DNA from: a virus
Taxonomy: Duplodnaviria; Heunggongvirae; Uroviricota; Caudoviricetes
Strand: one strand, 5' to 3'
Length of the DNA: 31,764 nt
IMG/VR virus record: IMGVR_UViG_3300011008_000007
The notes beneath the pieces are model-generated. The model was not told the DNA's origin. It worked only from the letters and a program-made list of their open reading frames with translations, and searched no databases. This document shows positions 3,783 through 31,764 of this stretch, in pieces (position 1 is the first letter of the stretch; each line of letters opens with the position of its first letter). The position numbers and the translations under genes are program-made.

Positions 3783-4391
3783 CTATCTTATTCTTTTATA
3801 GTTGAAAATTGCGCGCATATCGTTTTCCCACGCGGTTTTTATATGCCCTTGTTTCCACTTTATATACTGTTTATATCGAATTTTTGAAGCTTCAACAGAC
3901 AAACCAAAACAAAATTGAATATCGCTTGCAGAATGAATATCAAGAATTTCAAATAAAGGGAACGGTGCTAAAAGCTGCGCCGTAAACAAATCAGCTTCGG
4001 ATTCAAAGCCAGATGTATCTAATTTCCAATCTCTGCCCTCTGGAATATGATTAATAGCTTTGCTTTTTAGGTGATTGCATACGATATGCCCCAATTCATG
4101 AGATAGAGTCCAACGTTGCCTGCCCTCATTATACTGAGTATATGAATCGTTATAGAGAATTAAATATCTATCGTTTTCAAGTTCATAATGGGTGCATCCG
4201 GTAAGACTTTCGCAAAGAGCTTCTACATCAGAAATTGAGCAATTATTGAGCTTGGCAAACTCTTGATATGTTATTAGGCGGCAATTTGGAATCAATTTGA
4301 TAATCTTCTTTGGTTCTATTGGGAATTTAATATATGGTAATAGGGAATATGTTTCCAATATTTTTCTTTGAATAAATTGATGTCTTATCAT
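3783..4391 (-). CDS. ImmA/IrrE-family metallopeptidase (DUF955), anti-repressor
   Basis: R.RWTLSHELGH (HExxH) plus ESEADLFTAQLLAP; directly downstream of an XRE gene. Confidence 0.92.
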   Translation of the reverse strand: MIRHQFIQRKILETYSLLPYIKFPIEPKKIIKLIPNCRLITYQEFAKLNNCSISDVEALCESLTGCTHYELENDRYLILYNDSYTQYNEGRQRWTLSHELGHIVCNHLKSKAINHIPEGRDWKLDTSGFESEADLFTAQLLAPFPLFEILDIHSASDIQFCFGLSVEASKIRYKQYIKWKQGHIKTAWENDMRAIFNYKRIR

Positions 4392-4792
4392 TCTTGTTCG
4401 CTAATATCTCCATTCTTAAATGCTTCTTCAAATGCTATATGAAGCATTTCCATCATTCTTTTTCTATCTTTTTCAGGCATATTTCGGCGCGCACGTTGTA
4501 TTGATATAATATCGCTATCCAATTCAATATCGCCCTCAACTTTGCCGGAGTATAAATAGTCAAGTGAAACTCCAAAATAATCGGCAACCAATGCCAATTT
4601 GTCCGCTGAAGGACACGATGTTTTCCACTTGAAAAGATATGAGCGAGAAAATCCGAGTGCCTTTTCAAGCATAACAATACTCATATCGTGTGCGTCGCAC
4701 AGTTCTTTTATGCGGTCATAAACTGTTTTGACACCTTTGTTATTGTTTTCATCATTAAAAACGTCCAGTTCGGAGTTGTGCTTTGTAGTCAT
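4388..4792 (-). CDS. XRE-family HTH repressor (ImmR/CI-like)
   Basis: RIKELC...MSIVMLEKALGFSRSYLFKWKTSCPSADKLALVADYFGVSLDYL is an HTH_3 pattern; GAGG RBS upstream on the minus strand. Confidence 0.92.
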   Translation of the reverse strand: MTTKHNSELDVFNDENNNKGVKTVYDRIKELCDAHDMSIVMLEKALGFSRSYLFKWKTSCPSADKLALVADYFGVSLDYLYSGKVEGDIELDSDIISIQRARRNMPEKDRKRMMEMLHIAFEEAFKNGDISEQE

Positions 4793-9773: not shown

Positions 9774-10155
9774 TATGGGATTCCCAAACGAAACACTTAA
9801 AGATAACAGCGCAGAAGAATTTACAGAAAGCGCTAAAAACTTAGACATTGCTGAAAATAAACAGCAGGGTAACAAAGAGAATTTATCTAAAGAACAAGTA
9901 AAAGCAGTAATCGAGAGTTATAAAGAAGTACAGGACGAAATGAGAGAGAAATATAAGGCAAGTATTCCCGAACTTCAAGAAGAATACCGCAGAGGTATTT
10001 CTGTTGGTGCTCAGGCTGCTTGTGAGGTTGTTTTAAAGAAATTAAATAATCGCTCTACTCCGCTAATGACAAAGATTGCAGATATTAAGGCATTTTGTAG
10101 AAGACCTTTCGGACAGGAGCCGGAACAAATTTTGGAGAGTACAGATGATAATTAA
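9766..10155 (+). CDS. Hypothetical protein (paralog of 23675..23917)
   Basis: Co-oriented ORF with overlapping start and stop codons. Confidence 0.7.
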   Translation: MLNMGFPNETLKDNSAEEFTESAKNLDIAENKQQGNKENLSKEQVKAVIESYKEVQDEMREKYKASIPELQEEYRRGISVGAQAACEVVLKKLNNRSTPLMTKIADIKAFCRRPFGQEPEQILESTDDN

Positions 10156-10702
10156 TGACCTGCAAACTGTTAGCGGTCAATATGATTTGATTTATGCAGA
10201 CCCGCCGTGGCGTCAGTCAAAAGGTGGTAAAAAAGCTGTTCGCAAAAATAGTAGTGGCACAAAACTTGATTATCCAACGTGTAGCCTTGAAGAAATCAAA
10301 AATCATATTGCTACTGCCGTAGGTTCGGGGGATAAAAACAAAATCCTCTTCCTATGGACAATAGACAAGTATTTATTTGAAGCACAAGAAATTGCTGAAA
10401 ACCTTGGCTTTAAACTTCACGCAAGAATGATTTGGGATAAAGTTACGGGAATACCAGCGGCATTTACGGTAAGGTATGGGCACGAATATCTGCTTTATAT
10501 GTATAAGGGTAAACTTACTCCTGTGGCGAAAGAAGAGCGTGGCAAGATTCATACGGTTTTCCGCGAAAAAGTTACTAAGCATAGCAAAAAACCCGAAATT
10601 GCTTATGAGATTATCGAAAGGCTATATCCTGACCTCAAAAAGATTGAAATGTACGCTCGAAACGAGAGAAATGGTTGGGATTCTTGGGGAAATGAAATTT
10701 AG
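10145..10702 (+). CDS. MT-A70-family adenine methyltransferase
   Basis: YDLIYADPPW, LFLWT, WDK, HSKKPE and IEMYAR....GWDSWGNE. Start moved to ATG 10145 (GGAG RBS). Confidence 0.9.
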   Translation: MIINDLQTVSGQYDLIYADPPWRQSKGGKKAVRKNSSGTKLDYPTCSLEEIKNHIATAVGSGDKNKILFLWTIDKYLFEAQEIAENLGFKLHARMIWDKVTGIPAAFTVRYGHEYLLYMYKGKLTPVAKEERGKIHTVFREKVTKHSKKPEIAYEIIERLYPDLKKIEMYARNERNGWDSWGNEI

Positions 10703-29878: not shown

Positions 29879-29986
29879 ATGGAGAAAAAAGTAAAAATTA
29901 AATGTACGGTTGCTTATGGTAACAAAAACATAAAAGATTTATACATACAATACATTAAATCAAAATTGAAAGAAGAAAATAAATGA
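29879..29986 (+). CDS. 35-aa basic protein upstream of the recombinase (not in the ORF track)
   Basis: GAGG RBS 7 nt before ATG; MEKKVKIKCTVAYGNKNIKDLYIQYIKSKLKEENK. Confidence 0.6.
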   Translation: MEKKVKIKCTVAYGNKNIKDLYIQYIKSKLKEENK

Positions 29987-29994
29987 GATAAATT

Positions 29995-30045
29995 ATGGTT
30001 GACTCTACGATATTATTATAATATAATTATGGTAGTGTCAACCAT
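29995..30045. repeat. 51-bp att-like imperfect palindrome
   Basis: ATGGTTGACTCTAC...GTAGTGTCAACCAT: outer arms match 13/14, whole arms 20/25. Confidence 0.75.
29999..30027 (+). promoter_or_regulatory. Sigma-A/70 promoter of the recombinase gene
   Basis: TTGACT (29999-30004)-N17-TATAAT (30022-30027). Confidence 0.75.
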
Positions 30046-30064
30046 TTTGCTCAGAAAGGAACGT

Positions 30065-31657
30065 ATGAATTATTTAGGGCAAAAGACATATATAGCAGCT
30101 CTTTATGCGCGTTTAAGTTCTGAGGACTTGCAAGAAGGTACAAGCGTATCTATCGAAACCCAAAAGAAAATTCTTGAAGATTATTGCAAGAGTAATGGTA
30201 TTATAATATACAATGTATATGTTGATGATGGATATACGGGTACAAACTTTAACCGTCCGGCATTTAAACGACTTTTAAGAGATTGCGAAAACAAACATTT
30301 TAATATGGTTATTGTTAAAGACCTATCAAGACTTGGCAGAGAACACATTGAAACCGATAACTACATTGAAAAGTATTTTCCCGAACGAAACATCCGCTTT
30401 GTAGCCATTGGTGACGATTACGATAGCGAATCCAAAATGCAAGATTTGGATTTTATTGTCCCTATGCGTAATCTATTCAACCAGTTCTATCCTGCCGATA
30501 CCTCTAAAAAGGTTAGACAGGCGTTTAGGGCAAAGGCTTCAAGGGGCGAGTTCATTGGCGCACAAGCTCCATTTGGATATAAAAAGAGCCAAAAGGATAA
30601 ACACGTTCTAATCATTGATGAAGAAGTTGCGCCGATTGTTCAAAGAATGTTTACCTTAATAGCTTATCACGGGTATGGTTTTACCAAAATTGCTAAATTA
30701 TTTAGTTCTGAGAAAATCTTAACTCCTTCAGCATACCAAGCGCGAAACTCTAATCGCGAGTATAGCAAAAATCCATATGATTGGAATTTGGGTTCTATAA
30801 GGGCTATTATTAATAACGAAACATATCTCGGCAAATTGGTTAGCGGCAAACGTTCTGTTATGTCCTTTAAGAACAAACGGGTAATTAAAAAGGATAGGGA
30901 AGATTGGATAGTAGTTGATAATATGTTTCCGCCGATAATCACACAAGAATTATGGGATGATGCCCACGCGAGAATAGGGGAAAGGAAAAGGGACACCACT
31001 TCTTCTTTCGACAATATTTTTGCGGGATTGATAAGGTGTGATAAATGCGGCAAAGTCTTAGGATTATCTTCTAACAAAAGAGAAAAACCATATTATGTAT
31101 GTGAAACCTATAAAAAGAAAGGTAAACACATATGTACACCGCACTATACATTATATAATGATATATATGATACGGTGCTGCAAAAAATTCAAGAGGTAGT
31201 CGGAGTTATTCAATCCGATGAGTTTGAAATCCAAATTGCAGAAGAAATATTTTCTGAAATGGGGCAAGAAAATAATATCGGAGAGCAGATAAAACAAACC
31301 CAAAGCCAAATCGCTAAAATCAATAACAGATATGAACAAATGTATCAAGATAGACTTGACGGTATTATCTCTGTTGAAAGATTTAAGCAAATGGTTAAAG
31401 GTGATGAAGAAAAATTATCTGAGCTTAAACAAAAACTTGACATCTTGCTTGAAAAAGAAAAAAATCAAAATTCCGCAGAGTCCGCCAAATTAGCCTTTAT
31501 TCAAAAAGTTAAAGATTTAGGCAAAATTACTTCTCTTGACAGAGTTATTCTTAACACGCTGATTGATAAAATAGTAATCAGCAACAGAGAAATGGTGGAC
31601 GGCGAATATACGCAGAATATTATTATTCATTTCAAATTCAGTAACTTCTCTAACTGA
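30065..31657 (+). CDS. Large serine recombinase (integrase)
   Basis: ALYARLSSED (catalytic Ser), DDGYTGTNFNRP, VKDLSRLGR, recombinase domain, Zn ribbon CDKCG...YYVC...CT.H and coiled coil. Start set at ATG 30065 (AAGGA RBS). Confidence 0.95.
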   Translation: MNYLGQKTYIAALYARLSSEDLQEGTSVSIETQKKILEDYCKSNGIIIYNVYVDDGYTGTNFNRPAFKRLLRDCENKHFNMVIVKDLSRLGREHIETDNYIEKYFPERNIRFVAIGDDYDSESKMQDLDFIVPMRNLFNQFYPADTSKKVRQAFRAKASRGEFIGAQAPFGYKKSQKDKHVLIIDEEVAPIVQRMFTLIAYHGYGFTKIAKLFSSEKILTPSAYQARNSNREYSKNPYDWNLGSIRAIINNETYLGKLVSGKRSVMSFKNKRVIKKDREDWIVVDNMFPPIITQELWDDAHARIGERKRDTTSSFDNIFAGLIRCDKCGKVLGLSSNKREKPYYVCETYKKKGKHICTPHYTLYNDIYDTVLQKIQEVVGVIQSDEFEIQIAEEIFSEMGQENNIGEQIKQTQSQIAKINNRYEQMYQDRLDGIISVERFKQMVKGDEEKLSELKQKLDILLEKEKNQNSAESAKLAFIQKVKDLGKITSLDRVILNTLIDKIVISNREMVDGEYTQNIIIHFKFSNFSN

Positions 31658-31701
31658 AACATCGGGTCTGTTGATTAATTTAGAGAAGTAAAAAAATAGA
31701 C

Positions 31702-31717
31702 CAAAATGGTTGACACT
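31702..31717. repeat. 16-bp perfect inverted repeat of 30034-30049 (att half-site candidate)
   Basis: CAAAATGGTTGACACT is the reverse complement of AGTGTCAACCATTTTG. Confidence 0.85.
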
Positions 31718-31730
31718 TAAAATTACATAT

Positions 31731-31764
31731 TCCTCCATAGCTCAGTTGGTAGAGCGCGTGACTG
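31731..31764 (+). tRNA. tRNA 5' half, probably tRNA-Asn(GTT), truncated by the window edge
   Basis: TCCTCCA-TA-GCTC-AGTTGGTA-GAGC-G-CGTGA-CTG: acceptor strand, D-arm and anticodon stem. Only the first anticodon base (G) is visible; Asn is inferred from the TCC acceptor start. Confidence 0.85.

Follow-up and report, generated by a model that had tools for sequence, protein, structure and literature searches.

Integration module of a rumen Ruminococcus phage: a large serine integrase that targets the interior of a host tRNA-Asn gene, with putative regulatory repeats around its gene

The window (the whole stretch of viral DNA analysed here, 31,764 nucleotides) contains the integration module of a temperate rumen Ruminococcus phage of about 160 kb, in its unintegrated (attP) form. 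The module is arranged in the order orf35, the promoter Pint flanked by two repeated arms (L and R), the integrase gene int, attP, a third arm (T), a tRNA-Asn gene and, past the window end, a 5S rRNA gene. The integrase (Int) recombines the central GT of attP (31666-31667) with a GT in the variable loop of the host tRNA-Asn gene, as shown by the natural junctions described below. The three arms appear to be regulatory elements and not crossover sites.

The int gene (30065-31657, plus strand) is preceded by the ribosome-binding site AAAGGA (30055-30060), ends with the stop codon TGA (31655-31657) and encodes a protein of 530 amino acids with the Pfam domains Resolvase, Recombinase, Zn_ribbon_recom and DUF4368 (PF00239, 1.9e-25; PF07508, 6.9e-23; PF13408, 6e-13). 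The motifs Y-x-R-x-S (S18) and S-R-L-G-R are present in the translation and invariant across 14 homologues. A comparison with PHROG returned integrase (1e-105), and the PDB matches were TnpX, the closest solved N-terminal domain, and SprA of SPbeta. Judged by its domain set, the int product is a large serine recombinase (LSR) of the phage integrase type. The promoter Pint (29999-30027, plus strand) agreed with the consensus in 11 of 12 positions (-35 box TTGACT at 29999-30004, 17-nt spacer, -10 box TATAAT at 30022-30027) in a scan of contig L016, which reads the window contig further and in which 9971-9999 correspond to window 29999-30027. Based on this spacing, transcription is predicted to start near 30034.

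The attP site is a 46-bp imperfect palindrome (31644-31689) lying over the int stop codon and composed of the P arm (31644-31665), the GT and the P' arm (31668-31689). In eight lineages with integrases 60-100% identical, attP was always 46 bp long, its central GT was invariant and its outer arms were conserved. Four chromosomal contigs from four samples (L017, L275, L276 and L277), whose integrases are 95-96% identical, have attR junctions exactly at the attP centre. These contigs read from the P arm through the GT into nucleotides 48-76 of the host tRNA-Asn (46-76 after the P arm); therefore, integration cuts the host tRNA-Asn within the variable loop. This leaves the host tRNA split, with no reconstruction at the junction, and attB overlaps the host tRNA gene. 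The P' arm of attP contains no T-arm sequence of the tRNA. L017 had also been considered as a deletion, an interpretation dropped because this contig is an attR. Two different host flanks occur among the four contigs, and the three with a common flank may all stem from the same lysogen. In Logan contigs, runs X1 and X3 end or diverge at 31668, while runs X2 and X4 are continuous. A reading of the window made from its sequence alone (hereafter the sequence-only reading) had proposed a tRNA-targeting serine integrase that crosses over at the first base of the tRNA (31730/31731). The enzyme class and the kind of target proved right, whereas Int targets tRNA-Asn at the variable loop/T arm instead of the 5' end, and the real crossover is the GT of another palindrome, the 46-bp attP.

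Searches with the attL pattern yielded no match in viral contigs or in 222 genomes of the host genus, and the attR pattern had no match in viral contigs. When Int was used as a query for lysogens in GTDB genomes (222 of the genus and 400 of the family), just one 2-kb MAG contig was returned. Tandem partial 5' fragments of tRNA-Asn in the host genome G103 are broken at tRNA nucleotides 22-26 and are thus scars of elements other than this phage's Int.

The phage tRNA-Asn(GTT) occupies 31731-31764 (plus strand), the window ending at tRNA position 34 and thus holding its first 34 nt. The complete gene was found at 11703-11778 of L016 by ARAGORN, confirming 31731 as the first base of the tRNA, as proposed earlier. 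It is followed by a 5S rRNA gene at 11798-11914 of L016 (Rfam, 79 bits), beyond the window. In all free-form lineages a complete tRNA-Asn(GTT) adjoins attP, and in several of them a 5S rRNA gene is also present on the P' side. The phage-type tRNA and 5S rRNA have common substitutions that distinguish both from the host copies. All free-form contigs (integrases 60-100% identical) carry homologous phage lysis and DGR genes on the far side of the tRNA. The gene order thus runs unbroken across 31731 into these genes, indicating that the window is unintegrated phage DNA. No near match to the window was found in the phage collection searched, and a look-up of the neighbouring endolysin returned the window's own contig only.

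Since the replacement tRNA lies directly beside attP, it would land in place of the broken gene. The phage tRNA-Asn, with the 5S rRNA where present, would come to lie at attL, immediately downstream of the broken gene, and could replace it; as the attL junction was not found, this fate of the P' side is deduced. Host genomes have several tRNA-Asn copies, so that replacement may not be essential and the requirement may be relaxed. A comparable strategy, tRNA-dependent lysogeny, has been described for mycobacteriophage Fionnbharth and Cluster K4/L phages, and suggested for the Lactobacillus prophage Lj965 as well (Guerrero-Bustamante and Hatfull 2024, PMC10865867). As in those phages, integration takes place at an attB overlapping a host tRNA gene, whose sequence the junction does not restore. 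However, their integrases belong to the tyrosine class and rely on arm-type sites and a common core of about 10 bp, whereas here an LSR acts and just the GT is shared. In addition, unlike in those phages, the replacement tRNA is directly beside attP, with the 5S rRNA gene alongside in several lineages. Because Int is a serine recombinase, the system is a variant of tRNA-dependent lysogeny. The tyrosine version exists in the sister phages L263 and L264, in which the same slot is filled by Xis, tRNA-Cys and a tyrosine integrase.

Int resembles SPbeta SprA/SprB, Bxb1, phiC31, A118 and TP901-1 in its domain set and in having beside int a 46-bp attP that is an imperfect palindrome with a non-palindromic central dinucleotide. 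SPbeta is also similar in phage size and content, and a small partner protein is predicted here, comparable to SprB in SPbeta. However, phage LSRs such as SPbeta SprA and Bxb1 target a protein-coding gene, in contrast to the tRNA interior here, and attP overlaps the int stop codon, unlike in SPbeta SprA and other phage LSRs. A further difference from SprA/SprB is that Int carries DUF4368 and that its candidate partner is just 35 amino acids long and predicted to dock on this domain. DUF4368 occurs in 63% of one multi-targeting clade versus 0.73% of site-specific LSRs (Durrant et al. 2022, PMC10083194).

The candidate partner is encoded by orf35 (29879-29986, plus strand), the last gene of the early operon, whose product is a conserved basic peptide of 35 amino acids. 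Every LSR lineage has a homologue of orf35 immediately before the int promoter, and in the tyrosine-integrase sister phages its place is taken by an HTH_17 Xis. In structure prediction, the complex of orf35 with residues 300-530 of Int scored 0.78, versus 0.02 for the best of three controls, and 51 of 78 solved complexes but 2 of 108 mismatched pairs attained this mark; contact agreement between the runs was at least 96% and the partner pLDDT at least 81. Therefore, as far as structure modelling can tell, orf35 is predicted to bind the DUF4368 domain of Int, and it is a candidate recombination directionality (excision) factor.

The arms share the motif ATGGTTGACWCT, which occurs three times in the window with at most one mismatch, as L at 29995 on the plus strand, R at 30034 on the minus strand and T at 31706 on the plus strand, with no further copy. 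Shuffled windows contained 0.25 copies on average, and none of 100 shuffles reached three. The relative G152 has a fourth copy, which falls within a coding sequence and seems fortuitous. L (29995-30006) and R (30034-30045) bound an imperfect palindrome of 51 bp (29995-30045) that encloses the int promoter. Its 25-nt arms are 80% complementary, it has a folding energy of -30.2 kcal/mol as RNA (z = -3.6), and its length in relatives is 48-55 bp. The perfect inverted arms of 16 nt at 30034-30049 and 31702-31717, for which the sequence-only reading gave exact positions, can be lengthened to 19 nt if one mismatch is allowed (30034-30052 and 31699-31717). Arm R in this extent (30034-30052, plus strand) is complementary to L and T and is predicted to be the 5' end of the int mRNA. 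Arm T (31699-31717, plus strand) is a lone copy, complementary to R, on the P' side of attP. In eight lineages T was always located beyond attP, 5-17 nt from attP and 19-31 nt from the tRNA, and it was missing from the attR contigs. Where bases vary among these lineages, they change in concert in L, R and T, and the arms co-vary with the integrase. The arm sequence differs from the attP arms, so that the att-binding domains of Int are unlikely to read the arms.

Two distant LSR modules (L198 and L176, about 31% identity) have the same layout of L, -10 box and R followed by a palindrome and T. Their arm sequences are unrelated to those of the window and show compensatory changes between these two modules. 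Such arms were absent from sixty other distant LSR loci. Arm T was also considered as a promoter of the tRNA gene, but, judged by eye, a usable -10 box at a suitable distance is lacking in most lineages. Finally, T was examined as a P-type half-site located 25 nt from a crossover at the first base of the tRNA. The offset of 25 nt from 31706 to 31731 holds in the window lineage but becomes 19, 22 or 31 nt in relatives, and the tRNA has no partner motif. The spacings of the arms, both within the L/R palindrome and between T and the tRNA, are thus too variable for crossover sites.

How the arms act is best explained, in our opinion, by an RNA mechanism similar to lambda sib. We favour it over a protein operator, although from the sequence patterns we would give it a little under an even chance. 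The three arms would form a control element sensing whether the phage is integrated. Since T is always just beyond attP, integration separates R from T. In the free phage, the int mRNA would hold R at its 5' end as well as T, and these could form a duplex of 13-21 bp beside the ribosome-binding site. In the prophage, T would have moved to the far end (attL), making the R:T duplex impossible. When transcription reads through from the early operon, the RNA, which then includes orf35, would have R paired locally with L instead. The duplex could either stabilise or destabilise the int message. Across the lineages R and T are complementary over 13-21 nt, and the duplex energies range from -23 to -31 kcal/mol. 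The R:T match exceeds R:L in length in four lineages (the window lineage, L251, L271 and L274), and the two are equally long in L167, where R:T is interrupted by two mismatches. The differences between R and T are G.U-compatible in L251 and L271 and are A.C mismatches in L167 and L274; they do not statistically favour RNA pairing.

In phage lambda, sib is a cis element past attP relative to int, and its local hairpin is cut by RNase III. The lambda promoter PI lies after the excision-factor gene and gives Int alone, while read-through from PL gives both proteins. The present module is like sib in that T lies beyond attP in all eight lineages and is parted from int by integration, and like PI/PL in that Pint follows orf35, so that read-through would give Int and orf35. 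Unlike sib, the predicted duplex is a long-range one between the mRNA 5' end and a site 1.65 kb downstream.

A possible but less probable explanation is that the arms work as DNA, namely as operator half-sites for a phage protein, which would leave the module, attP and the tRNA replacement unchanged. The protein could be Int through its DUF4368 domain, an Int-orf35 complex or some repressor; its binding to the L/R pair would silence Pint, and T would serve as an auxiliary site for DNA looping, restricted to the free phage. The -35 box of this near-consensus promoter lies under L and its positions +1 to +17 under R, the classical placement of an operator. The co-varying bases include those of L, which is outside the Pint transcript, and protein-bound inverted repeats would co-vary alike. 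Furthermore, the arm element belongs to the serine-integrase module only, the tyrosine-integrase sister phages having none, which makes a module-encoded binder plausible. Small serine recombinases such as Tn3/gamma-delta resolvase are known to repress their own promoter. Indeed, Tn3/gamma-delta resolvase at res and TnpX of Tn4451 are similar to the present case in that the promoter of a serine recombinase is embedded in repeats; however, the repressing sites of those systems are recombination sites bound by the recombinase, whereas the arms here differ from attP and have no fixed spacing. The arms are also unlike the attP arms that Int must recognise, and the palindrome varies in length among relatives though the integrases align nearly without indels. 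If L and R formed a symmetric operator and T an auxiliary site, L should match R better than T does, the reverse of what was found in the window lineage, L251, L271 and L274. Moreover, the arm sequences of L198 and L176 are completely different, with L at different promoter positions.

It is very improbable that the arms are secondary recombination sites at which Int or another recombinase inverts or excises a 1.7-kb int segment (30020-31730), as the sequence-only reading had suggested. In favour of such a cassette, int does lie between inverted arms, and the palindrome upstream of it has roughly the length of an att site. However, orientation and content were identical in every contig examined (more than 20, 22 of them in one lineage alone), and none of the contigs lacked the gene between the arms. 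A joint of 30020 with 31730 was absent from the Logan contigs of the four runs, which are too fragmentary for rare inversion or excision products, so that rare forms could escape them. The unconserved spacings, the dissimilarity to the proven attP arms and the lack of a partner half-site for T in the tRNA also argue against such a cassette. Scarcely any credence is due to the proposal that T and the tRNA 5' end form an attR, produced when a serine integrase crossed over at the first base of the tRNA: T does resemble the lone half-site adjoining a tRNA in a P-B' hybrid, and the integrase does target tRNA-Asn, but the proposal is refuted by the attR contigs, whose real junctions lie at 31666-31668 without T, and by synteny that continues in relatives across 31730 into phage DNA right of the tRNA, the very finding that the sequence-only reading had named as speaking against it, while the tRNA and 5S rRNA bear phage-specific substitutions, the T-to-tRNA distance is variable, and the ATAT taken as a shared half-site end precedes tRNA-Asn in uninfected host genomes too.

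Taken together, the int mRNA might sense integration by the separation of R and T, the 35-aa peptide docked on DUF4368 might provide directionality, and the tRNA-Asn and 5S cassette beside attP might repair the host operon broken by the phage, a combination that we put forward tentatively, as it is rather unlikely to hold in every part. Insertion of large DNA into genomes relies mainly on large serine integrases, so that their natural targets, regulation and directionality factors are actively sought. Int is a serine integrase with the interior of a tRNA gene as attB, and replacement of the tRNA had until now been linked to tyrosine integrases. The module also suggests a reason for a phage to carry a 5S rRNA gene. 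DUF4368, so far functionless, obtains a testable role in docking a micro-protein partner, and the arms provide a compact cis element through which expression of the integrase could be tied to the integration state. Tools that define prophage borders should take into account that the tRNA beside this integrase is phage DNA and not a host junction. A metagenome scan with the phage-type 5S signature detected two contigs, one in the free form and the other starting inside the tRNA.

The gene for the window integrase lies on a 161,988-bp ENA contig (locus L016), whose positions convert to window positions by adding 20028. The tRNA gene begins at 31731, where a reading made from the sequence alone had placed it, and the window ends at tRNA position 34. 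Past this end, L016 carries the complete tRNA-Asn(GTT), a full-length 5S rRNA gene (Rfam, 79 bits; gathering score 38), a bidirectional terminator and, on the minus strand, lysis and DGR genes, namely a CHAP endolysin, a GH25 lysozyme, a holin-like gene and a DGR reverse transcriptase. The order of early operon, recombinase gene (int), tRNA-Asn (with or without 5S) and minus-strand lysis/DGR genes is kept in phages with integrases 90, 88, 87, 75, 67, 62 and 60% identical, and the right flanks of these relatives are homologous by tblastx and have a terminator hairpin in common. The tRNA and 5S genes of the 87-100% group also carry common substitutions absent from Ruminococcus chromosomal copies. 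The tRNA at 31731 therefore belongs to the phage, and the arrangement in the window is the unintegrated one. Synteny runs unbroken across the tRNA into phage genes, which by the terms of the sequence-only reading itself refutes it: the attR proposed at the tRNA 5′ end has phage sequence beyond it, and the crossover placed at the first tRNA base (31731) gives way to a GT-centred attP, with phage DNA to the right of the tRNA.

The int gene (ATG at 30065, stop codon at 31655-31657, plus strand) encodes a 530-aa large serine recombinase with Resolvase, Recombinase, Zn_ribbon_recom and DUF4368 domains, matching the PHROG integrase family at 1e-105; its nearest solved structures are TnpX and SprA of SPbeta. 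The attP (31644-31689) is an imperfect palindrome with outer arms ACTTCTCTAA and TTAGAGAAGT, which covers the int stop codon and reaches towards T, the third of three copies of an arm motif. It is exactly 46 bp long, with GT at positions 23-24, in all eight free-form lineages. Four attR-type contigs, with integrases 95-96% identical to that of the window and the same phage genes and promoter palindrome upstream, run from the P arm through GT into CACTGGTTCGAGCC (tRNA-Asn nucleotides 48-76) and on into host DNA. In the 145-kb scaffold L017 the junction is followed by a host-type 5S and chromosomal genes; in L275, L276 and L277, from three other samples, the host flank is a different one that includes a terminator as well as unrelated genes. 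The sequence of host tRNA-Asn genes here is AATCATGAT-GT-CACTGG, which together with the junctions identifies the variable-loop GT of tRNA-Asn as attB. Identity between attP and attB at the crossover is confined to GT(C), and by manual comparison 8 of the 12 innermost positions of the P′ arm agree with the B arm read as its reverse complement. Partial arm matches of this kind are usual in serine-integrase sites. Logan contigs over int end at 31668 or turn into unrelated letters in runs X1 and X3, a weak hint of independent support for the attP crossover; those of runs X2 and X4 are continuous through attP. A search of viral contigs and 222 genomes of the genus with an attL pattern found no attL junction. 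The attP and attB assignment is firmly supported, and the earlier suggestion that a serine integrase targets a tRNA was right in general terms. DUF4368 occurs mainly in a clade of multi-targeting large serine recombinases (Durrant et al., PMC10083194). The window Int looks site-specific for a multi-copy tRNA, a target that a gene-based pipeline could count as multi-targeting.

Integration breaks the host tRNA-Asn between nucleotides 46 and 47, with no rebuilding at either junction. A complete phage tRNA-Asn is found on the P′ side, 41 nt past attP. Some 63 nt would separate it at attL from the truncated host gene upstream of it, and it would then be under the host's upstream promoter, with the phage 5S rRNA following next in 5S-bearing lineages. 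This 5S (L016 11798-11914, about 67-183 nt past the window end; L260 7736-7852; also L259, L270 and L271) sits directly 3′ of the phage tRNA-Asn, with phage-specific substitutions and compensatory changes among lineages; the L167, L251 and L274 lineages are without it. In many Ruminococcus genomes tRNA-Asn directly precedes a 5S gene, so that an insertion in the tRNA would part the host 5S from its promoter. Compensation for a promoter-less host 5S is therefore a plausible reason for the phage-borne copy. The phage-borne replacement tRNA and 5S are firmly supported. The module matches tRNA-dependent lysogeny, although that was described with tyrosine integrases, serine integrases being mentioned in passing only (PMC10865867), and the integrase here is a serine integrase. 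In L001 (11647-13302) an IS element whose inverted ends read GACTGTGTCAAAAG splits the phage 5S; this 5S is uninterrupted in the near-identical phage L270.

The anticodon stem of the phage tRNA-Asn (window 31757-31764, L016 11729-11748) has a G-C pair where host copies have A-T, a compensated change located within the B arm of attB, and the phage tRNA of L274 has GC in place of the crossover GT. Either change could keep the integrase off the phage's own tRNA. In the Ruminococcus host genome G103 (L018 720-1130), an rRNA/tRNA locus contains three tandem partial tRNA-Asn copies (the first 22-26 nt), each with ATAT before it and about 100 nt of foreign DNA after it, with an intact tRNA-Asn-5S downstream of all. 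Similar copies occur in L041, and those of G103 look like scars of other elements using the tRNA 5′ half. Repeated tRNA-Asn 3′-end fragments (AGTTGGGGGAGCCAAAAC) in the attR host flanks of L275 (5000-5600) and L277 (5300-5900) are probably scars of elements targeting the tRNA 3′ end.

The 16-nt inverted arms reported at 30034-30049 and 31702-31717 are present and stretch to 19 nt with one mismatch, and the 51-bp palindrome upstream (29995-30045) is likewise real. The 12-mer ATGGTTGACWCT has three copies in the window and none elsewhere in it: L (29995, plus), R (30034, minus) and T (31706, plus). Shuffled sequences averaged 0.25 copies, and none of 100 reached three. L and R flank the int promoter Pint, which matches the consensus at 11 of 12 positions; L includes its −35 box, and R is predicted to form the 5′ end of int mRNA, since it starts about 7 nt past the −10 box. 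T lies directly past attP in every lineage. Across lineages the two variable bases preceding GGTTGAC co-vary among the three arms, reading AT in the window group, AC in L167 and GC in L251, L271 and L274. Two distant modules (about 31% identity), L198 (4200-6000) and L176 (5850-7700), have a matching layout, with L inside the promoter, R directly past the −10 box, int, an att-like palindrome after the stop codon, and T. Their arms are unrelated to those of the window and differ between the two in a compensatory way. No tRNA was found near either module, and the three-arm layout was missing at 60 other distant loci. Judged by sequence comparison, the arms are functional, and their regulatory nature is firmly supported.

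R and T are complementary over 13-21 nt (predicted duplex energy −23 to −31 kcal/mol). The R:T pairing is longer than R:L in the window lineage, L251, L271 and L274 because it takes in a conserved UUUGCUC just ahead of the ribosome-binding site; R:T and R:L reach about equally far in L167, as an A run upstream of L pairs with the U tract too. As RNA, L and R form a predicted hairpin (z = −3.6). The attR contigs are without T because T lies on the far side of attP, and prophage int transcripts would therefore be unable to form the R:T duplex. We infer a mechanism acting on RNA: by analogy with lambda sib, int may be controlled at the RNA level according to integration state, to which we give a little under an even chance. 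A serious rival, less likely in our estimate, is binding of the arms by a protein, as an operator in which T would serve for looping: L and R occupy classical operator positions, the co-variation of the arms cannot separate operator from RNA, and the arm mismatches are mixed, of G.U-compatible and A.C types. As crossover sites the arms are rejected, because their spacings vary (48, 49, 51 or 55 bp for the L/R palindrome; 19, 22, 25 or 31 nt from T to tRNA +1; 5-17 nt from T to attP) while the integrases align with almost no indels, and because they are dissimilar to the attP arms; the excisable or invertible 1.7-kb cassette proposed earlier fails with them.

The UUUGCUC stretch (30045-30052) is also complementary to int codons 5-7 (30077-30084), where the pairing segment is GGGCAAAA in the window and GAGCAAAG in L251, L271 and L274, a U-to-C change in the UTR being paired with an A-to-G change in the codons. 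Such local pairing, predicted from sequence, would compete with the R:T duplex. In the 67% lineage (L251 7612-7660; same in L168-L172), a second, arm-free int-promoter core lies between the int stop and attP; it faces outward and in a lysogen would transcribe whatever follows attR.

A gene for a basic 35-aa peptide, orf35 (29879-29986), ends 8 nt upstream of L. It is kept in all serine-integrase lineages, had no match in a PHROG family search, and has Xis at its place in tyrosine-integrase sister phages. Structure prediction of orf35 with Int residues 300-530 gave a score of 0.78 (best of three controls, 0.02). Of 78 solved complexes 51 attain this mark, as do 2 of 108 mismatched pairs. Contact agreement between runs was at least 96% and partner pLDDT at least 81, with predicted contacts on DUF4368 (481-528) and residues 363-395. 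These models support, at the level of prediction, binding of orf35 to Int; the structure search with Int showed that a solved complex exists for SprA-SprB. The role that we infer for orf35 depends on this prediction being correct: transcripts reading through from upstream would then yield orf35 and Int, and Pint transcripts Int alone, the same logic as the lambda PL/PI promoters.

In the sister phages L263 and L264 the int slot is occupied by another integration module (L264 4488-6396), consisting of an HTH_17 Xis, a complete tRNA-Cys with repeated AGTGCTACAA arm-type motifs on either side, and a tyrosine integrase. This makes the slot an exchangeable integration module, and phages of this group habitually carry a whole tRNA at attP.

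The likely lysogeny switch, a pair made up of an ImmA-like metalloprotease and an XRE/CI-like repressor (3783-4792, minus strand), lies some 25 kb upstream of int. An ORF at 612-1802 matches phrog_1211 (2.7e-51), the PurZ-type adenylosuccinate synthetase family linked to 2-aminoadenine DNA. In the relative L251, the DGR reverse transcriptase has an RT-2 RNA next to it (10247-10467, minus strand; Rfam RF03077, 144 bits).
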